IMG/VR virus record: IMGVR_UViG_2534681701_000009
Reading direction: 5' to 3' (one strand)
Origin: a virus
Taxonomy: Duplodnaviria; Heunggongvirae; Uroviricota; Caudoviricetes
Length of the DNA stretch: 10,264 bases
The notes below the pieces were generated by a model, which had not been told where the DNA came from, did not search any database, and saw only the letters and a program-made list of their open reading frames with translations. Both the position numbers and the translations under genes were made by a program. Position 1 is the stretch's first letter. Each line of letters begins with the position of its first letter. Positions 1 to 10,264 of this stretch are shown here, in pieces.

Positions 1-1254
1 ATGCTGGAACAAATGGGCATTGCCGCGAAGCAAGCCTCGTATAAATTAGCGCAACTCTCCAGCCGCGAAAAAAATCGCGTGCTGGAAAAAATCGCCGATG
101 AACTGGAAGCACAAAGCGAAATCATCCTCAACGCTAACGCCCAGGATGTTGCTGACGCGCGAGCCAATGGCCTTAGCGAAGCGATGCTTGACCGTCTGGC
201 ACTGACGCCCGCACGGCTGAAAGGCATTGCCGACGATGTACGTCAGGTGTGCAACCTCGCCGATCCGGTGGGGCAGGTAATCGATGGCGGCGTACTGGAC
301 AGCGGCCTGCGTCTTGAGCGTCGTCGCGTACCGCTGGGGGTTATTGGCGTGATTTATGAAGCGCGCCCGAACGTGACGGTTGATGTCGCTTCGCTGTGCC
401 TGAAAACCGGTAATGCGGTGATCCTGCGCGGTGGCAAAGAAACGTGTCGCACTAACGCTGCAACGGTGGCGGTGATTCAGGACGCCCTGAAATCCTGCGG
501 CTTACCGGCGGGTGCCGTGCAGGCGATTGATAATCCTGACCGTGCGCTGGTCAGTGAAATGCTGCGTATGGATAAATACATCGACATGCTGATCCCGCGT
601 GGTGGCGCTGGTTTGCATAAACTGTGCCGTGAACAGTCGACAATCCCGGTGATCACAGGTGGTATAGGCGTATGCCATATTTACGTTGATGAAAGTGTAG
701 AGATCGCTGAAGCATTAAAAGTGATCGTCAACGCGAAAACTCAGCGTCCGAGCACATGTAATACGGTTGAAACGTTGCTGGTGAATAAAAACATCGCCGA
801 TAGCTTCCTGCCCGCATTAAGCAAACAAATGGCGGAAAGCGGCGTGACATTACACGCAGATGCAGCTGCACTGGCGCAGTTGCAGGCAGGCCCTGCGAAG
901 GTGGTTGCTGTTAAAGCCGAAGAGTATGACGATGAGTTTCTGTCATTAGATTTGAACGTCAAAATCGTCAGCGATCTTGACGATGCCATCGCCCATATTC
1001 GTGAACACGGCACACAACACTCCGATGCGATCCTGACCCGCGATATGCGCAACGCCCAGCGTTTTGTTAACGAAGTGGATTCGTCCGCTGTTTACGTTAA
1101 CGCCTCTACGCGTTTTACCGACGGCGGCCAGTTTGGTCTGGGTGCGGAAGTGGCGGTAAGCACACAAAAACTCCACGCGCGTGGCCCAATGGGGCTGGAA
1201 GCACTGACCACTTACAAGTGGATCGGCATTGGTGATTACACCATTCGTGCGTAA
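1..1254 (+). CDS. proA: gamma-glutamyl phosphate reductase (glutamate-5-semialdehyde dehydrogenase), complete, 417 aa
   Basis: Full-length ORF starting at window base 1 and ending in TAA; the translation matches the E. coli ProA sequence as I recall it; proA sits immediately upstream of thrW in E. coli. Confidence 0.95.
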
Positions 1255-1368
1255 ATAAAACCGGGTGATGCAAAAGTAGCCATTTGATTCACAAGGCCAT
1301 TGACGCATCGCCCGGTTAGTTTTAACCTTGTCCACCGTGATTCACGTTCGTGAACATGTCCTTTCAGG

Positions 1369-1444
1369 GCCGATATAGCTCAGTTGGTAGAGCAGCGCAT
1401 TCGTAATGCGAAGGTCGTAGGTTCGACTCCTATTATCGGCACCA
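1369..1444 (+). tRNA. thrW: tRNA-Thr (anticodon CGU), 76 nt with encoded CCA
   Basis: GCCGATATAGCTCAGTTGGTAGAGCAGCGCATTCGTAATGCGAAGGTCGTAGGTTCGACTCCTATTATCGGCACCA: cloverleaf-compatible acceptor/T-arm pairing, GTTCGA T-loop, anticodon loop TTCGTAA giving anticodon CGT; position after proA fits thrW. Confidence 0.9.
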
Positions 1445-1461
1445 TTCAAACATCTCCCCAA

Positions 1462-1482
1462 GTCTACTAAAGTCTTTCAAAA
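1462..1482. repeat. 21-bp direct repeat copy 1 (GTCTACTAAAGTCTTTCAAAA), candidate integrase arm-type site in attL
   Basis: Near-identical copy at 1525..1545 (2 mismatches), both between the tRNA 3' end and the integrase start. Confidence 0.45.
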
Positions 1483-1524
1483 CCCCTTATAATCCGCGTA
1501 TTAAAGCCCCGCTCGTCTTTTGAC

Positions 1525-1545
1525 GTCTACTAAAGTCCCTCAAAA
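1525..1545. repeat. 21-bp direct repeat copy 2 (GTCTACTAAAGTCCCTCAAAA), candidate integrase arm-type site in attL
   Basis: Matches 1462..1482 at 19 of 21 positions; followed by tandem ATGGGGGTA at 1557..1565 and 1569..1577. Confidence 0.45.
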
Positions 1546-1609
1546 TCTACGGTCAGATGGGGGTACTTATGGGGGTATTTGCTGTTCGGTTTAGTGGAGG
1601 TACCCCCAA

Positions 1610-2824
1610 GTGAAACTCAATGCCCGTCAAATAGACACAGCCAAGCCAAAAGAGAAGGCTTACAAGCTGGCCGATGGTGGCGGTTTGTATCTCTTGGTAA
1701 AACCTAATGGAGGTAAATACTGGCGACTTAAATATCGTGTAGCTGGTAAAGAGAAGCTATTGGCACTAGGTGTTTATCCTGAGGTTACTCTAGCCGATGC
1801 TCGGGCAAAACGTGAAGATGCGAAAAGAGGTATCGCTGGTGGTATCGATCCGATGGAAGCGAAACGAGAGGAAAAGATTGCCCGGGAAACGCAGTTAAAC
1901 AACACCTTCAAAGATATTGCCATTGAGTGGCACAGCAGCAAATTAAAAAAATGGTCTGCTGGTTATGCTTCAGACATCCTCGAAGCCTTCAACAAAGATG
2001 TGTTCCCTTACATTGGCAAAAAAACCATCGCCGAAATCAAACCACTTGAACTTCTGAATGTGCTGCGTCGCATCGAGGGGCGCGGTGCTACAGAAAAAGC
2101 CAAAAAAGTGAGGCAGCGGTGCGGGGAAGTTTTCCGCTATGCAATAGTCACTGGTCGCGCAGAGTATAACCCTGCACCAGACCTTACTAGCGCGATGCAA
2201 GGCCATGAATCTAATCATTACCCTTTCCTTACAGCCAAAGAATTACCTGATTTTTTCAAGGCATTGTCCAGTTACTCAGGAAGCGCATTGGTTGTTATGG
2301 CGGCTCGTCTACTGATTATCACCGGCTTGCGGACTGGCGAACTACGTGGCGCATTATGGGATGAAATTGATTTCAACAAGGCTATCTGGGAGATACCCGC
2401 TTCACGTATGAAAATGCGGCGGACTCATATTGTGCCATTGTCTGAGCAGGCTCTTTCGCTTATTGGGAAGATTAGAGAAATAACAGGCAATTACCCTCTT
2501 ATGTTTCCCGGGCGCAATGATCCAAGGAAAACAATGAGCGAGGCCAGCATAAACCAAGTGTTTAAGCGCATTGGCTACGCTGGACGTGTAACTGGTCATG
2601 GGTTCCGGCACACTATGAGTACGATTTTGCATGAGCAGGGCTATAACACCGCGTGGATAGAAACGCAGCTCGCTCACGTTGATAAGAACTCAATTCGTGG
2701 CACATACAACCATGCGCAATATCTGGATGGAAGGCGGGAGATGCTTCAATGGTATGCCGACTATATGGATTCTCTCGAGCATGGCGGAAATGTGGTGCAT
2801 ATGGTGTTTGAAAAACACGCATGA
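1610..2824 (+). CDS. int: P4-family tyrosine recombinase / integrase, 404 aa, GTG start
   Basis: ORF directly downstream of the tRNA; GGAGG 9 nt upstream of GTG; N-terminus KPKEKAYKLADGGGLYLLVKPNGGKYWRLKYR is typical of P4-type integrases; C-terminal HGFRHT ... RGTYNHAQY carries the recombinase His/Arg/Tyr catalytic motifs. Confidence 0.9.
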   Translation: MKLNARQIDTAKPKEKAYKLADGGGLYLLVKPNGGKYWRLKYRVAGKEKLLALGVYPEVTLADARAKREDAKRGIAGGIDPMEAKREEKIARETQLNNTFKDIAIEWHSSKLKKWSAGYASDILEAFNKDVFPYIGKKTIAEIKPLELLNVLRRIEGRGATEKAKKVRQRCGEVFRYAIVTGRAEYNPAPDLTSAMQGHESNHYPFLTAKELPDFFKALSSYSGSALVVMAARLLIITGLRTGELRGALWDEIDFNKAIWEIPASRMKMRRTHIVPLSEQALSLIGKIREITGNYPLMFPGRNDPRKTMSEASINQVFKRIGYAGRVTGHGFRHTMSTILHEQGYNTAWIETQLAHVDKNSIRGTYNHAQYLDGRREMLQWYADYMDSLEHGGNVVHMVFEKHA

Positions 2825-2967
2825 AACAACTGGACAAGTATACAGAGGTTTACTAAAGTATAGGGGAGTAGATTGATAAAAACTCACAGAGGATTGCTAT
2901 TTAACAGTTAGCCCTGGAGAAGGGCAATCGCTCTTTTATAAACGAAGGTGTATTGAGCCTTCTACGT

Positions 2968-3030
2968 CGCTGACAAAGCGGAATGTTCTTTAACAGGCTT
3001 TGGCGCTGACAAAGCGCAATTGTTCTTTAA
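2968..3030. repeat. two direct repeats of ~26 bp (CGCTGACAAAGCG-G/CAAT-TGTTCTTTAA) in the int-alpA intergenic region
   Basis: Copies at 2968..2993 and 3004..3030; each begins with a small CGCT...AGCG inverted motif; candidate regulator binding sites. Confidence 0.4.
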
Positions 3031-3134
3031 AACTACTGGATGTCACGCCTAATAGCGTGATCCTGCCGAAATGCAGGGTAGCTCTACCCTTGTGGAGCAA
3101 ACAAACCAAAACAATCTGACTATCTTTTATAAAA

Positions 3135-3163
3135 GACCGCAATATGTTTTTCATATTGTGGTC
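3135..3163. promoter_or_regulatory. 12-bp imperfect palindrome with 5-T spacer (GACCGCAATATG TTTTT CATATTGTGGTC), candidate operator or hairpin upstream of alpA
   Basis: 11 of 12 positions are self-complementary; lies ~90 bp upstream of the alpA ATG. Confidence 0.35.
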
Positions 3164-3268
3164 TTTGGCGTATTCGACATTTGACGCAAATAAAACTCTC
3201 GCCATTCGTTGCAGGAGGGAGTTATTGCGTCATTAGTACAGGATATTAATAAATGGCTAATTACAATT

Positions 3269-3277
3269 CATTAATTC
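3269..3277. repeat. IS1 target-site duplication, left copy (CATTAATTC)
   Basis: Identical 9-mer directly flanks the other IS1 end at 4046..4054; 9 bp is the usual IS1 duplication length. Confidence 0.9.
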
Positions 3278-3292
3278 GGTAATGACTCTAAC

Positions 3293-3796
3293 TTATTGAT
3301 AGTGTTTTATGTTCAGATAATGCCCGATGACTTTGTCATGCAGCTCCACCGATTTTGAGAACGACAGCGACTTCCGTCCCAGCCGTGCCAGGTGCTGCCT
3401 CAGATTCAGGTTATGCCGCTCAATTCGCTGCGTATATCGCTTGCTGATTACGTGCAGCTTTCCCTTCAGGCGGGATTCATACAGCGGCCAGCCATCCGTC
3501 ATCCATATCACCACGTCAAAGGGTGACAGCAGGCTCATAAGACGCCCCAGCGTCGCCATAGTGCGTTCACCGAATACGTGCGCAACAACCGTCTTCCGGA
3601 GCCTGTCATACGCGTAAAACAGCCAGCGCTGGCGCGATTTAGCCCCGACATAGCCCCACTGTTCGTCCATTTCCGCGCAGACGATGACGTCACTGCCCGG
3701 CTGTATGCGCGAGGTTACCGACTGCGGCCTGAGTTTTTTAAGTGACGTAAAATCGTGTTGAGGCCAACGCCCATAATGCGGGCTGTTGCCCGGCAT
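3293..3796 (-). CDS. insB: IS1 InsB reading frame (expressed as InsAB' fusion via -1 frameshift), 167 aa as listed
   Basis: Translation ...[96 protein letters not shown]... matches IS1 InsB; overlaps insA as in IS1. Confidence 0.9.
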
Positions 3797-3990
3797 CCAA
3801 CGCCATTCATGGCCATATCAATGATTTTCTGGTGCGTACCGGGTTGAGAAGCAGTGTAAGTGAACTGCAGTTGCCATGTTTTACGGCAGTGAGAGCAGAG
3901 ATAGCGCTGATGTCCGGCAGTGCTTTTGCCGTTACGCACCACCCCGTCAGTAGCTGAACAGGAGGGACAGCTGATAGAAACAGAAGCCAC
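3715..3990 (-). CDS. insA: IS1 InsA (transposition regulator / N-terminal part of InsAB' transposase), 91 aa
   Basis: Translation [43 protein letters not shown]... is the canonical IS1 InsA with its zinc-finger motif. Confidence 0.93.
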
Positions 3991-4045
3991 TGGAGCACCT
4001 CAAAAACACCATCATACACTAAATCAGTAAGTTGGCAGCATCACC

Positions 4046-4054
4046 CATTAATTC
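4046..4054. repeat. IS1 target-site duplication, right copy (CATTAATTC)
   Basis: Identical to 3269..3277. Confidence 0.9.
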
Positions 4055-4232
4055 GTCTCTCTGAAGTTCAAAGGCGAACTGGTTATAGCAAAGCATGGAT
4101 TTATCGTCTTATTAGTCAGGGGAGGTTCCCTAAACAGGTAAAAATTGGAAGTCGGGCAATTGCTTTTGTTGAGTCTGAAATAGATGAATGGATTGAGAAG
4201 TGTATATTAGAATCTAGAGACGAGGTGGCCTG

Positions 4233-4664
4233 ATGGAAAAGAAAAACCGCCCATTACAGGCGGCTAATTCAGATATTCGTGTATCTGATGTTACGCCCCT
4301 TACAAAATCCCTTCAAGCACCAAAGCGCACACCGAAAAAGCATCGTGCCAGAGTCTATATGCTGCGTACTGGTATAGAGGGATGGACAGAAAATGACATT
4401 CTTCGCTACTGCCGTCTGTCTTCTGGTCGTAACTATGCAACAGAGTTAGAACGCCAGCTTGGAATCACTCTGGAGCGTATCGACGAAAAGAATCCTGATG
4501 GTATCGGAACACACCTTCGCTACCGTTTCTCCTGCCGTGGTGATGTTCTGAAAGTGATCACTCATATTAACCATCTTGCGAACATAAATGATCACAACGG
4601 ACTTTCTCAGCAGGAAATTGCCGACATTCTGAAACTCTACCCGGACGCGTTTAACGCCGCCTAA
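4233..4664 (+). CDS. hypothetical protein, 143 aa, basic N-terminus; function unknown
   Basis: ATG overlaps the alpA stop (TGATG); ORF with protein-like composition; no family recognised by eye. Confidence 0.65.
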   Translation: MEKKNRPLQAANSDIRVSDVTPLTKSLQAPKRTPKKHRARVYMLRTGIEGWTENDILRYCRLSSGRNYATELERQLGITLERIDEKNPDGIGTHLRYRFSCRGDVLKVITHINHLANINDHNGLSQQEIADILKLYPDAFNAA

Positions 4665-4676
4665 CGGAGACTGAAA

Positions 4677-5510
4677 ATGAACATCGAAAAAAGCAGATTA
4701 ATTTCTGAGGCCGCCCCTCATCTGAACGCCTCTCTGGGCACAATTAACGGTAATGAATTTGCCGCAATTGTCCCGGTTATTCCTGGTCATATCGGTGGGC
4801 GTGAAACCAATATTGTTAGCGCAAAAGCGTTACACAAAGCGTTGGGCGTGGGAAAAGACTTCTCTACATGGATCACTGATCGCATCTCTGAATATGACTT
4901 CACCATTGGGCACGATTACTCAGTCCATAAAACAATTTCCCCAAATTTGGGGAAAAGCCCGAATGGCGCGGCTTACAGCAAGATAAAGCACTCTGGCAGA
5001 CCCGGCAAAGACTATCTGTTAAGTGTCGGAATGGCGAAAGAACTGGCAATGATCGAACGCAATGATCAGGGTCGCGCTATCCGCCGTTATTTCATCCAGT
5101 GCGAGGAAGAATTACAGCGTAGCGTGCCTGAAATCGCCGCCCGCTATCGTCGCCAGCTAAAAGCCCGTATCAGTGCCGCAAACAACTTTAAGCCAATGTG
5201 CGATGCGCTGAATATGGCCCGTGCCGAGATGGGTAAAACGACGCAGCAACACCACTACACAAACGAGAGCAATATGATTTCTCGTATCGTTCTTGGTGGG
5301 CTAACTGCTAAGCAGTGGGCGCGGATAAATGGCTATTCTGGCGAACCTCGCGACCATATGAACGCAGAACAGCTTGAGCACCTCTCATATCTCGAAAGCA
5401 CCAATATCACGTTAATTGATATGGGCATGGAATATGAGCAGCGCAAAGGAGAACTCACCCGCCTGTCGCAACGCTGGCTCGCTAAGCGTCTGGAGGCGGT
5501 CCATGTTTAA
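4677..5510 (+). CDS. phage antirepressor-like protein (AntA/Rha-type N-terminal region), 277 aa
   Basis: GGAG 8 nt upstream of ATG; motifs KDFSTWITDRISEYDF and LSVGMAKELAMIERNDQGRAIRRYFIQCEEEL resemble AntA/Rha-family antirepressor domains from memory. Confidence 0.7.
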   Translation: MNIEKSRLISEAAPHLNASLGTINGNEFAAIVPVIPGHIGGRETNIVSAKALHKALGVGKDFSTWITDRISEYDFTIGHDYSVHKTISPNLGKSPNGAAYSKIKHSGRPGKDYLLSVGMAKELAMIERNDQGRAIRRYFIQCEEELQRSVPEIAARYRRQLKARISAANNFKPMCDALNMARAEMGKTTQQHHYTNESNMISRIVLGGLTAKQWARINGYSGEPRDHMNAEQLEHLSYLESTNITLIDMGMEYEQRKGELTRLSQRWLAKRLEAVHV

Positions 5511-5685
5511 GCCGACAGGAACACCACAACCTCAAAAACGCTACAAAGATGCCCACGGAGCACTCGTTACTGTCGAAAGCGTGTCTCACAACCGAGTGAC
5601 GTTTTATCGCGACGGGTATCAATCGCCATGCGTACAACCGCTGGCGCGTTTCATGAAGGAGTTCGCGGAGGTTAACAAATGCTAA
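5503..5685 (+). CDS. small hypothetical protein, 60 aa (MFKPTGTPQ...)
   Basis: ATG embedded in the upstream stop (ATGTTTAA) suggests translational coupling; I prefer this start to the longer 5416 start in the ORF track, which overlaps the upstream gene by 95 nt. Confidence 0.5.
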   Translation: MFKPTGTPQPQKRYKDAHGALVTVESVSHNRVTFYRDGYQSPCVQPLARFMKEFAEVNKC

Positions 5686-6746
5686 CCGTCCAGAAGAAGA
5701 CATTTTCACTGGCTGGTATGTCGCCAAAATCCAGTAATATGACGGCAAAGTCAGGCATTAATACAGCAGATACAAGCAAAGTTTATCATTTGCTGGTGGT
5801 CGGAACGGATGCCTTAACCATATCAGAAATCTCGGGCGATGATATTAGCATTGAGAAGGTCAGCGGCTGCGCCAGAAAATTTCTGGTCGTAGATGATGTC
5901 TTCCGCTCGTGTAGTGACTCCACAAAAACATTCGTCCACGCGCGTGACGTTAACGAAATGAGCGCGATGTACTGTGCATCTGGTGCTTCCAATAGCGAGT
6001 TTTCGGAGTCCATAAAAAAGAGCTTGCCGTTATGCGGCAACACGGTTTATGGTTATAAGGCACCTCATAAAACGGGTGCCGGGATTGGCGTCCTGGTAAA
6101 TCGAATGGCGACATATGACGCGCCGAGCGTCTTTTTTTATGTCGTAGGTCTGACTCACCCATTTTTTGGGCGTTGGTGTATAATCCAGCGCCTTTGTCAA
6201 TCAATGGTGGCTCAGGCAGGGGCTTCTTCGGAAGCGCCGGTATCCATTCGAGCCGGTTACGCCAACCCTGTCTGGGCTACCACCAGCGAAATTGGCGTTT
6301 CCGGTGGTAGCGTTACATGCTATCGAATGGAGGCTGCCACATGCTGGCTACTACCCCTACCCAAAAACCGCAATTTATCTGGATTATCGCCGCAGTTCGC
6401 CGCGATTGCCCGACAATTACCGCCAAAATTCATCATATTGCTGCCGAGTCTGAACGCGATGCTCGCCGTTCTCTGGTGCGCGATCACGTCTGCTTTTTTG
6501 CTGGTCGTATCCGCATGGAGGTGGCTCATGATTAAAACCTACGATGTGCATATGGATCCCCTCGAACGCACAAGCCAGATCATCACACTGACAGAAGTGA
6601 TTAACGACATTCTGGTGAGCAACTCTCCCTCACGAGACGAAAGACTGAAGGCGTTACTCGCGATATTGGATCTCGCCGTTCGTGACGTTCATTTCCTGCT
6701 GGAAGGTGGCGAAATGCCAGGAAAAACGGGGGCAACCAATGAATAA
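5679..6746 (+). CDS. uncertain: 355-codon open frame; plausibly a real coupled gene at its 5' end (5679 to ~6116) but no in-frame stop before 6746
   Basis: ATG overlaps the upstream stop (ATGCTAA) with GAGG 7 nt upstream; frame stays open through a terminator-like hairpin, a promoter-like TATAAT, the structured region and the out-of-frame Icd-like ORF. Probably not one protein. Confidence 0.25.
6117..6138 (+). terminator. candidate rho-independent terminator (GACGC-GCCGA-GCGTC followed by T7)
   Basis: 5-bp GC-rich stem, 5-nt loop, immediately followed by TTTTTTT at 6132..6138; lies at the end of the alpA-to-orf60 coupled module. Confidence 0.4.
6150..6184 (+). promoter_or_regulatory. candidate sigma70 promoter, perfect -10 TATAAT at 6179..6184 with TG two bases upstream and an A/T-rich tract before it
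   Basis: GGTGTATAAT; no canonical -35 at 17-bp spacing, so assignment rests on the -10 and context (just downstream of the terminator, upstream of the structured region and icd-like gene). Confidence 0.4.
6199..6335 (+). ncRNA. candidate C4/CI-type antisense immunity RNA with flanking target sites (approximate bounds)
   Basis: 9-bp stem GCTACCACC (6276..6284) / GGTGGTAGC (6303..6311); TCCATTCGA (6243..6251) is complementary to TCGAATGGA (6323..6331), which overlaps the GGAGG ribosome-binding site of the icd-like ORF; a related ATCAATGGTGG motif sits upstream at 6199..6210. Confidence 0.4.
6341..6535 (+). CDS. Icd-like (host cell division inhibitor-like) small protein, 64 aa
   Basis: GGAGG 7 nt upstream of ATG; [22 protein letters not shown]... 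resembles Icd-like proteins of P1/P4-type immunity regions from memory; stop overlaps the next ATG. Confidence 0.55.
   Translation: MLATTPTQKPQFIWIIAAVRRDCPTITAKIHHIAAESERDARRSLVRDHVCFFAGRIRMEVAHD
6528..6746 (+). CDS. small hypothetical protein, 72 aa
   Basis: ATG overlaps the icd-like stop; first of a chain of coupled ORFs. Confidence 0.5.
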   Translation: MIKTYDVHMDPLERTSQIITLTEVINDILVSNSPSRDERLKALLAILDLAVRDVHFLLEGGEMPGKTGATNE

Positions 6747-6933
6747 CTCAATTAATACCCCTCGCCTTACGTCCGCACTTCAATTAATCGAGCAAGCAGC
6801 GGCTGTCCCGGTTGCTGTCAGTCTTTCGGCTGAAGAAATGGACGCTGCTGATGTCGTGGATGCGATTAAAGCGTGCTCATCTTTGGTTAACGATGCCCGT
6901 GACGAGCTGGTAATTCTTGGGGGTGAAAAATGA
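6739..6933 (+). CDS. small hypothetical protein, 64 aa ([10 protein letters not shown]...)
   Basis: Start embedded in upstream stop as ATGAATAA; preferred over the 6682 start in the ORF track. Confidence 0.5.
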   Translation: MNNSINTPRLTSALQLIEQAAAVPVAVSLSAEEMDAADVVDAIKACSSLVNDARDELVILGGEK

Positions 6934-7193
6934 ATATCAACTTAATTTATCGTCATCCGTGTGAGCTGGAAATTGAATCATTGCTGAGCCGTGAAGAGCC
7001 ATATCCAGACACATTCACTCTTGCAGATCGCACGACTGAACGGCTTACCAGAGCGCGCACAGGTCTGGTTCATGTGATGAATGAGATTCTTCCATCGGTG
7101 GGAGGGGAACAGGCGACAGTAATCACTAGCTGGCTACAAAAAGTTACCTCTCTGATAGATATCAGTTTAATCGATGCGGAGAGTGCGAAATGA
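6930..7193 (+). CDS. small hypothetical protein, 87 aa
   Basis: ATGA start/stop overlap with upstream ORF. Confidence 0.55.
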   Translation: MNINLIYRHPCELEIESLLSREEPYPDTFTLADRTTERLTRARTGLVHVMNEILPSVGGEQATVITSWLQKVTSLIDISLIDAESAK

Positions 7194-7411
7194 CCAACAT
7201 CCAGCTCATTGAAGCACAATGTCGCATCGAACAGGTTCAGACTGTTTTAGGGTTCTGGCTTGAAGGGGCCAGCCCCAGCAACAGAGACAAGTTAATGATT
7301 GGCGCGGTTATGTCACTGCTCAATGGCGTACCAGAAGCTATTCAGGAAGCGGACGAATTGTTGGGCAAATATGAGTTACAGAATCATTCAGGCGAGGCGA
7401 AACATGAATAA
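7190..7411 (+). CDS. small hypothetical protein, 73 aa
   Basis: ATGA start/stop overlap with upstream ORF. Confidence 0.55.
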   Translation: MTNIQLIEAQCRIEQVQTVLGFWLEGASPSNRDKLMIGAVMSLLNGVPEAIQEADELLGKYELQNHSGEAKHE

Positions 7412-8006
7412 TTTCTTAACTTTCCATGCAGAAGCAACGCCTGACGGCGTAAACATCATGTACCGCAGCAACGATGGCATGACAGAACGCGTTGAGACCG
7501 TCTCATATATTGATGCCGTAAATCGTCTGGATGCCGGGGATTATGACGATAAACCAGATGAAGGTATGTCAATACATCTCGCTATTGCCGATGGCGGCAA
7601 CCAGGGATATTTCGATTACACATCACAGCATAACGTCATTATGTGGAGATGGCTGATCGCAACAGTATTCATGCTGGAAATGAGAGAGGAAAACGGTACT
7701 GTCAGCATCATTGATGATACTGGCAATCCTTCCGAAGTGGCTGTTTATTCCAACGGCATCGTCGCCATGCCGCTGTATCCAGTAGCAGAGCGCCTCGCTA
7801 TGGCAAACAACATTGAGGGCGCGATGATAGAACGTTTTGGCATCGAGTCTGGCACAGAACGCGCCATCATTTTCTACAGAGCCATGATGGATGTGGAACA
7901 AGGAGCACTGACTCCATTTGGTCGTGAAACGCTTGCTGAACTTCACAACAGCTTTATAGCTGAACTGAATGAAAACGGCATGCCAGCGGAACCAGTGACG
8001 CACTGA
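7404..8006 (+). CDS. hypothetical protein, 200 aa (MNNFLTFHAEATPDG...)
   Basis: Start embedded in upstream stop as ATGAATAA, the same 8-nt junction as at 6739; preferred over the 7299 start, which would overlap the upstream ORF by 113 nt. Confidence 0.65.
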   Translation: MNNFLTFHAEATPDGVNIMYRSNDGMTERVETVSYIDAVNRLDAGDYDDKPDEGMSIHLAIADGGNQGYFDYTSQHNVIMWRWLIATVFMLEMREENGTVSIIDDTGNPSEVAVYSNGIVAMPLYPVAERLAMANNIEGAMIERFGIESGTERAIIFYRAMMDVEQGALTPFGRETLAELHNSFIAELNENGMPAEPVTH

Positions 8007-8016
8007 GGATGGAGCC

Positions 8017-8358
8017 ATGATTACTAAAAATTTCCGACTGAATGCGCTGGCAAATAAGTATGCGTCGGCACTGTATAACCACATTACCTCCACCAGCGGC
8101 GGGGACTATTTCATGGTTGATGCGGACGGCGAGGCCGTCCGTGTGGAAATCGTCAATGGAGTAAAAGGCGTTCGCAGCCTGATCGATAGCTACACACTGG
8201 CAGCCATGAAAGTGTTCTACCCGCAGTGGGAAACCGTGGGGATCGAGCTTCTTGAACGTTGCGTCACTAAGGACGGATTGACTGACGTCGGGCGTGAGAT
8301 ATGGCAAAGCATGGTTAATGACATGGGCGCAACTGTAGCGGGAGGTTCTCATGCGTGA
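8017..8358 (+). CDS. hypothetical protein, 113 aa
   Basis: GAGGATGGAG ribosome-binding site directly upstream of ATG; no family recognised. Confidence 0.65.
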   Translation: MITKNFRLNALANKYASALYNHITSTSGGDYFMVDADGEAVRVEIVNGVKGVRSLIDSYTLAAMKVFYPQWETVGIELLERCVTKDGLTDVGREIWQSMVNDMGATVAGGSHA

Positions 8359-8722
8359 AAATGCAGAAATGGCGCTTAGCTCCGCAATCGGAGAGCAGGT
8401 GGCAAAGATTGCTGGTGCTGTGTGGATTCATAACCTTCATTCTACTGGTGAAGAGAAAATGGTAATTCAGACGCCAGAGGGACGCACCATTACTACATCT
8501 CTGAAGCCGTCAGATGTTTGTGATCTGATTTGCGCATTCATGTACCCAGCAATGAGGACTGTCCACGGCGATAAGTGGAAACTTGCGACAACCGCTGAAT
8601 TTGATATGTGGCTAAACAATGATGGCATGCTGACTGATTACGGAATAACCAAGTGGCAGATGCTGGTTAGCCATATCGCAAACGCTATAGACCACGTGGG
8701 GTACGGTGATGCGAAACATTGA
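8351..8722 (+). CDS. hypothetical protein, 123 aa
   Basis: ATG overlaps upstream stop (ATGCGTGA); no family recognised. Confidence 0.65.
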   Translation: MRENAEMALSSAIGEQVAKIAGAVWIHNLHSTGEEKMVIQTPEGRTITTSLKPSDVCDLICAFMYPAMRTVHGDKWKLATTAEFDMWLNNDGMLTDYGITKWQMLVSHIANAIDHVGYGDAKH

Positions 8723-9336
8723 TCTTATCCGTCAGGTTATCAGTGCGTCTGAAAACAACTGGCCTCATGTGCTGGGCTGCCTGAACATAAATGTCCCTGA
8801 CTCTCCGCGCCGTCATGCTCCCTGCCCTGCATGTGGGGGCAAAGATCGATTCCGGTTCGATGACAACGGGCGCGGTAGCTTCATCTGTAATCAGTGCGGC
8901 GCTGGTGATGGGCTGGATTTAATTAAACGCGTAAATAACTGCGACACAACAGAGGCGGCGCTTCTTGCCGCTGATGTTCTGGGTATTGATTACCGGACAA
9001 CGGAAACACCAGAAGCCACCAGCCAGAAACGGGAACAACTGGAAACCGAGCGCCAGCGACGCGAACAGGAGCGCCTGAAAAGGGCAGAGAAGGACGAACA
9101 ACAAAGACGGGATACGTTTTCCCGTCAGTTTGATGACATGCGCAGAAAGGCTGTAAACGGCAAATCTGATTATCTGGTTGCGAAAGGGGTAGGTGATTTT
9201 ACATTCCCCGTGTTGCCCGATGGATCTCTGTTGCTGGCGCTGGTGGATAAATCCGGCGCAGTAACAGCAGCACAGACTATTACCTCACATGGTGAAAAAA
9301 GACTCCTGACAGGTTCAGCAAAGCGGGGGGCATATC
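8706..9336 (+). pseudogene. P4 alpha-type DNA primase, N-terminal ~210 codons only (zinc-binding domain and start of TOPRIM), truncated by IS186
   Basis: CPACGGKDRFRFDDNGRGSFICNQCGAGDGLDL is a primase zinc-ribbon motif; P4-type primase/helicases are ~700-800 aa, whereas this frame terminates a few codons inside IS186. Confidence 0.8.
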
Positions 9337-10264
9337 CATAAGCGCTAACTTAAGGGTTGTGGTATTACGCCTGATATGATTTAACGTGCCGATGAATTAC
9401 TCTCACGATAACTGGTCAGCAATTCTGGCCCATATTGGTAAGCCCGAAGAACTGGATACTTCGGCACGTAATGCCGGGGCTCTAACCCGCCGCCGCGAAA
9501 TTCGTGATGCTGCAACTCTGCTACGTCTGGGGCTGGCTTACGGCCCCGGGGGGATGTCATTACGTGAAGTCACTGCATGGGCTCAGCTCCATGACGTTGC
9601 AACATTATCTGACGTGGCTCTCCTGAAGCGGCTGCGGAATGCCGCCGACTGGTTTGGCATACTTGCCGCACAAACACTTGCTGTACGCGCCGCAGTTACG
9701 GGTTGTACAAGCGGAAAGAGATTGCGTCTTGTCGATGGAACAGCAATCAGTGCGCCCGGGGGCGGCAGCGCTGAATGGCGACTACATATGGGATATGATC
9801 CTCATACCTGTCAGTTCACTGATTTTGAGCTAACCGACAGCAGAGACGCTGAACGGCTGGACCGATTTGCGCAAACGGCAGACGAGATACGCATTGCTGA
9901 CCGGGGATTCGGTTCGCGTCCCGAATGTATCCGCTCACTTGCTTTTGGAGAAGCTGATTATATCGTCCGGGTTCACTGGCGAGGATTGCGCTGGTTAACT
10001 GCAGAAGGAATGCGCTTTGACATGATGGGTTTTCTGCGCGGGCTGGATTGCGGTAAGAACGGTGAAACCACTGTAATGATAGGCAATTCAGGTAATAAAA
10101 AAGCCGGAGCTCCCTTTCCGGCACGTCTCATTGCCGTATCACTTCCTCCCGAAAAAGCATTAATCAGTAAAACCCGACTGCTCAGCGAGAATCGTCGAAA
10201 AGGACGAGTAGTTCAGGCGGAAACGCTGGAAGCAGCGGGCCATGTGCTATTGCTAACATCATTA
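9337..10264 (+). mobile_element. IS186 (IS4 family), left end and first 928 bp; continues beyond window
   Basis: Begins CATAAGCGCTAACTTAAGGGTTG (IS186 terminal repeat as I recall it), inserted next to a GGGGGG run; contains the IS186 transposase N-terminus. Confidence 0.85.
9392..10264 (+). CDS. insL: IS186 transposase, N-terminal 291 codons; partial, open to the window end (not in the ORF track because no stop is reached)
   Basis: Translation MNYSHDNWSAILAHIGKPEELDTSARNAGALTRRREIRDAATLLRLGLAYGPGG... matches IS186 transposase from memory; frame is open for exactly 291 codons to base 10264. Confidence 0.85.
   Translation, partial: MNYSHDNWSAILAHIGKPEELDTSARNAGALTRRREIRDAATLLRLGLAYGPGGMSLREVTAWAQLHDVATLSDVALLKRLRNAADWFGILAAQTLAVRAAVTGCTSGKRLRLVDGTAISAPGGGSAEWRLHMGYDPHTCQFTDFELTDSRDAERLDRFAQTADEIRIADRGFGSRPECIRSLAFGEADYIVRVHWRGLRWLTAEGMRFDMMGFLRGLDCGKNGETTVMIGNSGNKKAGAPFPARLIAVSLPPEKALISKTRLLSENRRKGRVVQAETLEAAGHVLLLTSL

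Follow-up and report, generated by a model that had tools for sequence, protein, structure and literature searches.

A probable EcCIMP1-type phage-inducible chromosomal island in thrW, with insertion sequences in its alpA and primase genes

Which kind of satellite occupies a tRNA gene when its layout, read from sequence alone, looks like that of phage P4? This question is raised by the IMG/VR virus record IMGVR_UViG_2534681701_000009, a stretch of 10,264 bp assigned to the Caudoviricetes, which we analysed at its full length and refer to as the window. An earlier reading of the same letters, the original prediction, took positions 1369-10264 for a P4-like integrative element in the thrW gene. 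We arrive at a different label, in which we have high confidence: the element is the left 8 kb of a phage-inducible chromosomal island (PICI) of the EcCIMP1 type, inserted in the 3′ end of thrW, and the copy in the window should be dead. The island is one more inactivated copy of an already known satellite family, described and tested in 2025, and the value of the finding lies mainly in the correct label (a PICI with P22-like phages as helpers instead of a satellite of the P4 type) and in an example of decay through insertion sequences (IS).

The island at thrW and its relatives

Contig AQET01000018.1 (GCA_000356165.2) ends inside a copy of IS421, and the window takes up its last 10.3 kb. The window opens with proA (1-1254), just upstream of thrW, the plus-strand gene of a tRNA-Thr(CGT) at 1369-1444 (ARAGORN; 71.8 bits with the Rfam tRNA model). 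The 3′ end of thrW is the integration target of the island, which runs from there onward with all of its own genes on the plus strand; only the genes of an inserted IS1 lie on the minus strand, and the one-strand layout of the original prediction is therefore correct for the island itself. The attL core, TCCTATTATCGGCACCATT, occupies 1428-1446 (+). The original prediction placed the right boundary outside the window, as the contig stopping inside IS421 bears out, and proposed to look for a repeat of the thrW 3′ end further downstream. Such an attR is present in a complete relative, the island of E. coli MB49 (locus L001), where the direct repeat has lost one base with respect to the thrW 3′ end (TCCTATTATCG-CACCATT, L001 39949-39966). 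A search of this relative with the 25-nt 3′ end of thrW, allowing up to three mismatches, found no repeat, and a search with shorter exact words then located attR with its one-base deletion. The attL and attR repeats bound a unit of 18.5 kb in MB49.

The integrase gene announced just after the tRNA lies at 1610-2824 (+) and encodes an apparently intact, P4-type tyrosine integrase of 404 aa, the length of the EcCIMP1 enzyme, with three Pfam domains (Arm-DNA-bind_3, Phage_int_M and Phage_integrase). It is 42% identical to P4 Int over the full length and 50% identical to the Int of Kapi1, the P22-like prophage that helps EcCIMP1. A repeat search delimited the integrase-proximal att arm (1462-1613, +), with 21-nt direct repeats at 1462-1482 and 1525-1545, tandem 12-nt arm-type repeats ATGGGGGTAYTT at 1557-1568 and 1569-1580 (the pair reads ATGGGGGTACTT ATGGGGGTATTT), and an inverted arm repeat, GTACCCCCA, at 1601-1609, which abuts the start of int. 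A like tandem pair, TTGGGGGTACTT TTGGGGGTATCT, stands about 60 bp to the left of attR in MB49, where both ends of the unit carry matching arm repeats. The annotated attP of P4 has the same design, with tandem 12-bp repeats of the TTGGGGGCAT type in both arms plus an inverted one at the start of int, and the tandem 12-bp repeats of window and P4 alike are of the form TGGGGG(Y)A. Int would recombine at the core TCCTATTATC(GGCACCATT) using these P4-style tandem repeats of both arms.

The E. coli strain MP1 harbours EcCIMP1 (Pick, Stadel & Raivio, ISME J 2025; PMC11773190; GenBank OR778291), a PICI with 19,963 bp inserted in the tRNA-Thr gene between proA and yagU and flanked by repeats of TCCTATTATC (PMC11773190); this published core equals window positions 1428-1437, within thrW. 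The same study reported that the element circularises only in the presence of Kapi1, and more when Kapi1 is induced, that Kapi1 lysates transduce it at very low frequency, that induction of this helper turns on the alpA promoter, which AlpA itself boosts, and that Int and AlpA, whose gene lies next to int, are both needed for excision, circularisation and transduction (PMC11773190). A Kapi1-like prophage was present in only 2 of the 21 strains bearing EcCIMP1, and in SatelliteFinder terms the authors scored the element as a Type C PICI (PMC11773190).

Compared with the MP1 locus, the window shows 97.8% identity over 1-3278 and 97.1% over 4046-9336 and has the same gene order, which makes its element a member of the EcCIMP1 family by descent. 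The two have in common the thrW site after proA, the att core TCCTATTATC and the gene order from int to the primase gene, and every part of the shared backbone was found: int, alpA, orf143, antA, the DUF4222 gene, the RNA and icd locus, the small open reading frames (ORFs) and the TOPRIM-DUF927 primase gene. The more general traits of Gram-negative PICIs are there too, that is, int, alpA and a primase gene, with no phage lysis or tail genes by Pfam and PHROG. This family backbone occurs in 484 of 5426 complete E. coli genomes, or about 9%. The window copy differs from EcCIMP1 in that its alpA is split by IS1 and its primase gene cut by IS421, in the specificity of its C4 RNA (of the MB49/042 type, not the MP1 type), and in a fragment of phage gene 3 that just past the pac position is IME10-like, whereas MP1 has a third allele. 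Right arms also vary between island copies. At the far end of EcCIMP1 in MP1 (L009 8213-8548 and neighbouring bases) we observed a second copy of the att region, 86% identical and accompanied by the 5′ end of an integrase gene, a sign of a decayed island in tandem, with vat and a MarR gene.

What weighs against this identification is that the right half of this copy, attR included, lies beyond the window and its contig. Downstream of the primase gene, the relatives carry homologues of P22 gp14, gp7, gp20 and gp16 together with a weak SieA-like gene (ejection-gene block at L001 31273-36742, and also in L009, L013, L014 and L050), as well as an Abi gene and a PerC-type gene; the gp14/7/20/16-like genes, the PerC-type gene and attR are present in MB49, MP1, 042 and PK8241. 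Genes for virion ejection proteins are atypical for a PICI, and the block follows the P22 order. These genes and the gene 3 fragment could be seen as recombination scars, left either in a decayed P22-like prophage or where a P4-type island met the remnant of a P22-like phage at thrW. P22 is known to integrate in thrW, which speaks for such an origin. The authors of EcCIMP1, moreover, first called the region an incomplete prophage (PMC11773190). We nonetheless regard a prophage origin as very improbable. EcCIMP1 excises and circularises as one whole unit (PMC11773190), with matching arm repeats at both ends, and genes for capsid, portal, tail and lysis functions are absent, as are lambdoid early genes. 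The gene 3 fragment stands alone, in inverted orientation, and starts precisely at the pac position. Finally, the same left and right arms are found next to yicC with a different integrase, both in E. coli 042 and in an assembly from Logan, and arms that travel with another integrase indicate that the right arm is part of the element rather than the remnant of a prophage at thrW. As for its distribution, we scanned 66 related loci, which come from about 65 Enterobacterales species and were retrieved with the primase; the gp14/7/20/16 block was seen among them only in Escherichia and, partly, in Leclercia.

Two insertion sequences in alpA and the primase gene

The EcCIMP1-type island of the window breaks colinearity with its complete relative in MB49 (L001) at two points, neither of which figured in the original prediction. 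The first one lies in alpA: the predicted alpA-like gene is present, yet split after nucleotide 25. Alignment to the intact MB49 gene (L001 23253-23456) leaves a 5′ stub with the first 25 nt (3253-3277, +) and a 3′ remainder (4046-4233, +), separated by an IS1 of 768 bp with insA/insB (3278-4045, minus strand), which was recognised by its transposase Pfam domains and the loss of colinearity. A 9-bp target duplication, CATTAATTC, flanks it at 3269-3277 and 4046-4054. The remainder is devoid of an in-frame ATG, GTG or TTG start and is covered by none of the plus-strand ORFs of 50 aa or more; the source annotation gives it as a 60-aa product with a Phage_AlpA domain. The intact AlpA of a relative has 67 aa and matches Pfam Phage_AlpA with an E-value of 7.4e-20.

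The second break truncates the primase-helicase gene, which the original prediction described as a zinc-finger primase. This zinc-ribbon/Toprim primase gene does start at 8709, and it is cut at 9336/9337, which leaves a 210-aa stub (8709-9341, +) that is native up to 9336 and owes its stop codon to IS421. The full-length primase of a relative has 918 aa with Zn_Ribbon_Prim, Toprim_3 and DUF927 domains (Pfam). The inserted element, an IS421 of the IS4 family with left end CATAAGCGCTAACTTAAGGGTTG, spans 9337-10264 (+) and runs off the window and contig end; the segment is 99.3-99.5% identical to IS421 copies in 2339 genomes, and its inverted repeat and target were read from the sequence. An identical primase stub was found on 22 contigs, most of them pieces of 5-10 kb between IS1 and IS421 (a look-up from a GTG start gave nothing, and the annotated ATG start gave these 22). 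Being bounded by IS1 and IS421, the stub-bearing contigs suggest a clonal group with both insertions in common. The junction between primase gene and IS421 appears in no complete E. coli genome of the collection searched.

Some observations concern the IS421 sites themselves. The insertion in the window follows GGGGGGCATATC, and a further copy of IS421, within a group II intron reverse-transcriptase gene, lies in GGGGGCGCATACCC, where 11 bp are duplicated. The identical 210-aa stub also ends the contig of a different island, with another integrase and next to yicC. These sites (window 9320-9345, L003 10001-10657 and L020 690-730) suggest a preference for G-run targets, together with either repeated insertion at the same site or recombinational transfer of the disrupted allele.

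The primase-helicase would replicate the excised circle of the island. Since deletion of alpA abolishes excision and transfer of EcCIMP1, and the primase is truncated here, the window copy is predicted to be immobile: it should neither excise nor replicate. Membership of the EcCIMP1-type PICIs by function calls for int and alpA; the window copy has an intact int and a split alpA, and is therefore a member of the family by descent that we predict to be non-functional. With IS1 in alpA and IS421 in the primase gene, it would survive as a relic in the chromosomes of a clonal strain group.

In E. coli K-12, thrW is the site of CP4-6, a cryptic P4-type prophage with a P4-type integrase, which is much larger and distinct from the island of the window. 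The two insertions would also suit a generic CP4-type cryptic island, no longer related to phages, whose RNA and Icd locus would have no role but in regulating the host or the island itself, and the same can be said of the scarcity of Kapi1-like prophages among the carriers of EcCIMP1 and of its very inefficient transduction (PMC11773190). This explanation seems to us slightly less probable still than a prophage origin, since helper-dependent induction, circularisation and transfer have been demonstrated for the near-identical EcCIMP1 (PMC11773190), and hundreds of genomes carry the conserved backbone in intact form.

Antisense-RNA immunity and the likeness to P4

The immunity-like locus and the icd-like gene of the original prediction are both confirmed by family models. 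A stretch of about 650 bp after the DUF4222 gene holds RNA genes. The first is an isrK-type leader RNA (6060-6137, +; 67.1 bits in Rfam, gathering score 50), with the antisense targets a1 (ATTGGCGT, 6084-6091) and b1 (TCGAATGG, 6101-6108), which ends in a terminator hairpin (6117-6131) and a T-run according to a terminator scan. It is followed by an antisense immunity RNA of the C4/CI type (6200-6287, +; 79.5 bits in Rfam, gathering score 45), preceded by a conserved TATAAT at 6179-6184 and containing the b′ loop CCATTCGA (6244-6251) and the a′ segment ACGCCAA (6259-6265). From the sequence and an alignment of two types, further antisense targets were placed downstream at 6291-6333 (+), with a2 at 6291-6298 and b2 at 6323-6330; b2 overlaps a GGAGG Shine-Dalgarno sequence (6329-6333) that lies 7 nt ahead of the ATG of the Icd-like gene (64 aa, 6341-6535, +). 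This gene, the first of the replication operon, scores 71.3 bits with NCBIfam NF033153 against a cut-off of 25 (on the ORF 6317-6535; the gene starts at the ATG at 6341), is annotated as Icd-like in MP1, and shows 43% identity to its P4 equivalent.

Six aligned copies fall into two sequence types, with the window, MB49, 042 and L003 on one side and MP1 and PK8241 (L009, L014) on the other. Both sides of the long C4 stem differ from one type to the other, with the pairing kept. The b′ loop is CCATTCGA in one type and CCTTGTAC in the other, the single-stranded a′ is ACGCCAA or CTGCGAA, and the leader targets change in step (a1, ATTGGCGT or TTTCGCAG; b1, TCGAATGG or GTACGAGG), as does the downstream b2 (TCGAATGG or GTACAAGG). 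In computed duplexes, cognate pairs of RNA and target are 10-20 kcal/mol more stable than non-cognate ones. From these covarying sequences we infer at least two heteroimmune C4-RNA specificities in the EcCIMP1 family. The isrK and C4 pair also occurs in relatives from Enterobacter, Lonsdalea, Leclercia and Symbiopectobacterium.

The immI region of P1 (c4 antisense RNA, icd, ant) and the immunity of P4 follow the same antisense arrangement. Like immI of P1/P7, the island has a C4-family RNA with a′ and b′ segments, paired targets upstream (a1/b1) as well as others that cover the ribosome-binding site of icd (a2/b2), and, as its first gene, an Icd-like one with the downstream genes coupled to it; unlike immI, its operon leads after icd to a primase and not to an antirepressor, with the AntA-type gene lying upstream, in the alpA operon. 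By this logic, a constitutive C4/CI-type RNA would pair with a1/b1 of the leader and with a2/b2 over the icd-like ribosome-binding site, silencing the operon from icd to the primase gene in the integrated state. The junctions of this operon all overlap, bar a 10-nt gap between orf200 and orf113, and because of them and of b2 covering the icd Shine-Dalgarno, the C4 RNA most likely blocks the replication operon for as long as the island stays integrated. A point to be set against this account is that the regulatory role of a C4-type RNA in a PICI is carried over from P1 and P4. For those studying the EcCIMP1 family, the useful part would be an antisense-RNA immunity in the style of P1 and P4, with at least two specificities, gating a replication operon.

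How P4-like, then, is the EcCIMP1-type island? Its likeness to P4 includes the tRNA target, the P4-type Int with its arm repeats, the AlpA/Vis-type regulator (P4-like family: Moura de Sousa & Rocha; PMC8628076), the immunity by isrK and C4 (CI) RNAs with an Icd-like ORF, and the Zn-ribbon/Toprim primase domain. In the P4 genome, Rfam places isrK at 8615-8692 and C4 at 8420-8507, with an Icd-like ORF at about 8195-8368, and the isrK and C4 region of the window has 71-92% local nucleotide similarity to it. Over residues 5-339 of P4 alpha, the primase shows about 32-33% identity in its N-terminal part, but its C-terminal, helicase part is a DUF927 domain without similarity to the C-terminus of alpha. 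The P4-defining genes are a different matter. With tblastn at E≤0.1, neither the window nor the complete elements of MB49, MP1 and 042 show a match to P4 Sid, Delta or Psu; epsilon has only non-significant matches (E of about 0.06-0.07), which lie in the right arms of the MB49 and 042 elements, with none in the window or MP1. None of these genes is found at E≤1e-4 in the 66 related loci. The window and four relatives likewise have no match to the P4 cos region. The helpers differ as well, since that of EcCIMP1 is a P22-like podophage and not a P2-like myophage, and the relatives carry P22-type ejection genes.

The original prediction expected any sid, delta or psu genes beyond the window, and took a lack of further P4-type genes downstream as a sign that it was mistaken; complete relatives have none, so that the strict P4 reading fails. 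Of the “P4-like integrative element” there remains a tRNA-targeting satellite whose Int, arms, RNA locus and primase N-terminus are homologous to those of P4, without the P4-defining genes or cos, and the broader wording “related tRNA-targeting islands” still holds. A backbone of int, AlpA and primase is common to P4-like elements and Type C PICIs, as noted by the authors of SatelliteFinder (PMC10085698), which explains why the layout looked P4-like from sequence alone. A true P4-like, P2-dependent satellite hiding a sid-delta-psu operon, epsilon and cos in its unseen right part, which these homologies and the common backbone would favour, is the least probable explanation of all, given that MB49 and MP1 (with left arms at least 97% identical), 042 and the wider set of loci lack these genes, that no cos is present, that the right arm bears P22-type gp14/7/20/16 genes, and that the proven helper of EcCIMP1 is a P22-like podophage.

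Known Gram-negative PICIs include EcCICFT073 and EcCIEDL933 (Fillol-Salom et al. 2018, 2019). These PICIs use cos-type lambdoid helpers. The EcCIMP1 type resembles them in its layout of int, alpA and primase/replicase, with AlpA as master activator, in its PerC-type gene and in excision induced by a helper, but the module after the primase is dissimilar, with no Rpp-type or capsid-morphogenesis genes, and EcCIMP1 clusters apart from them (PMC11773190).

A gene 3 fragment as candidate packaging signal, and the remaining genes

The paper on EcCIMP1 leaves the packaging mechanism as unknown and never mentions a pac site (PMC11773190). In the window, 5827-5933 (minus strand) is a 107-bp copy, recognised by sequence homology, of the central part of the small-terminase gene 3 of P22-type phages. 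It is 91.6% identical (E of 4e-35) to gene 3 nt 268-374 of E. coli Lederbergvirus phages, matching 117 phage records in all (Bas106, Dewey, Louie, IME10 and E212 among them), and 86% identical to P22 itself. The P22 record annotates pac at genome positions 4-25, that is, gene 3 nt 268-289, and in the phage alleles and six island copies the homology begins exactly at the base aligned with the first annotated base of P22 pac; it ends 107 bp further on, and the rest of gene 3 is absent from the fragment locus. The 22 bp equivalent to pac are thus window positions 5912-5933. The fragment is kept in six island copies, including ones with another integrase, and it is mosaic past the pac position, with the IME10 allele in the window, MB49 and PK8241, the P22 allele in L003 and a third allele in MP1 and 042, a pattern that suggests repeated exchange with gene 3 of phages.

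We tentatively propose that 5827-5933 may be a working pac site, through which the EcCIMP1 family would pirate headful packaging with the helper's own signal, although we place the chances somewhat below even. A gp3-type terminase would start headful packaging at the fragment on concatemers of the island, carrying the helper's packaging signal much as P4 carries the cos of P2. If true, the family, with its own gp14/7/20/16 set, would be a satellite dedicated to gp3-type phages of the genus Lederbergvirus such as IME10, Dewey, Louie, Bas106 and E212. The idea would fill the packaging gap of the EcCIMP1 paper and account for the poor transduction by Kapi1, whose small terminase (TerS) is of another type, encoded by 429 nt without similarity to the fragment; this mismatch could explain the very low frequency, and it fits the rarity of Kapi1-like prophages among the carrier strains. 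With 18.5-20 kb, an island would be about half a helper headful, and about two copies per capsid would provide terminal redundancy. A candidate packaging signal also predicts which phages should be efficient helpers.

Several observations weigh against the pac proposal. Kapi1 is the only demonstrated helper, and with a different TerS its published transduction cannot be explained in this way. About 5-6 positions of the 22 bp equivalent to pac do not agree with the closest phage allele. A degenerate pattern published for P22 pseudo-pac sites is present in the fragment with one or two mismatches, but the window has 9 such matches versus 7.5 expected, a chance level that adds nothing to the case. 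Among the 66 loci, such a fragment was found only in the Escherichia lineage, and in the Leclercia element L050, which has gp14/7/20, the equivalent interval contains no terminase-like fragment, with only the immunity region matching phages. A slight variant of the annotated P22 pac sequence has no exact match in the window; the case for pac rests on homology to gene 3, not on a motif match.

Between the integrase gene and alpA, just past the integrase stop, 2958-3030 holds two copies of CGCTGACAAAGCG(G/C)AAT, each one a short hairpin followed by a T-rich run. They probably are terminators of int or regulator-binding sites, and they lie in the region taken as alpA promoter in the EcCIMP1 study. 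Related islands from other genera have the Rfam int-alpA RNA motif RF02996 between int and alpA (L063 4343-4411; L040 4362-4430; L078 4423-4491; L031 4365-4433). The window gave no match to this motif, even at E≤1.

After alpA comes orf143 (4233-4664, +), whose start overlaps the alpA stop and which is kept in most related islands; it has no match in Pfam, NCBIfam, PHROG or PDB. It is followed by a gene for an antirepressor-like protein of the AntA/AntB family (277 aa, 4677-5510, +; Pfam AntA 2.6e-21, PHROG anti-repressor Ant 2.5e-37) and by that for a DUF4222 protein (60 aa, 5503-5685, +; Pfam DUF4222 6.1e-25 on the MB49 copy, from which the coordinates were mapped). Beyond the RNA genes and icd, a closely packed chain of small genes (6528-8722, +) was delimited from the ORF list and the annotations of relatives: orf72 (6528-6746), orf64 (6739-6933), orf87 (6930-7193), orf73 (7190-7411), orf200 (7404-8006), orf113 (8017-8358) and orf123 (8351-8722). 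In PHROG the chain matches only groups of unknown function, and orf200 and orf113, like orf143, have no match to solved structures by sequence.

The two genes orf113 and orf123 (8017-8722) are weak paralogues with 22% identity. Sequence searches of the PDB match orf123 to ubiquitin over about 70 residues, with 26% pairwise identity, and the low E-values are due to the repeated units of polyubiquitin. An AlphaFold model from a 14-sequence alignment (predicted local distance difference test score, pLDDT, of 89) is mostly helical with a single beta-hairpin, and a Foldseek search of this model against the PDB gave nothing below an E-value of 0.2 and no ubiquitin among the top 50 matches listed. 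We therefore rejected a ubiquitin-like nature for orf123.

A final point concerns the annotation of the RNA locus. A 355-aa ORF at 5679-6746 (+) bears the PGAP name “ash family protein”. The stretch of it that matches Pfam Phage_ASH (aa 124-232, nt ~6048-6375) falls on the isrK and C4 RNA genes, the 5′ part of the ORF overlies the gene 3 fragment, and its equivalents in MP1 and PK8241 are called pseudogenes. This ORF is probably not a gene, and only its last 72 codons (6528-6746) look real, so those working on the EcCIMP1 family may find it useful that the “ash family protein” call covers RNA genes.

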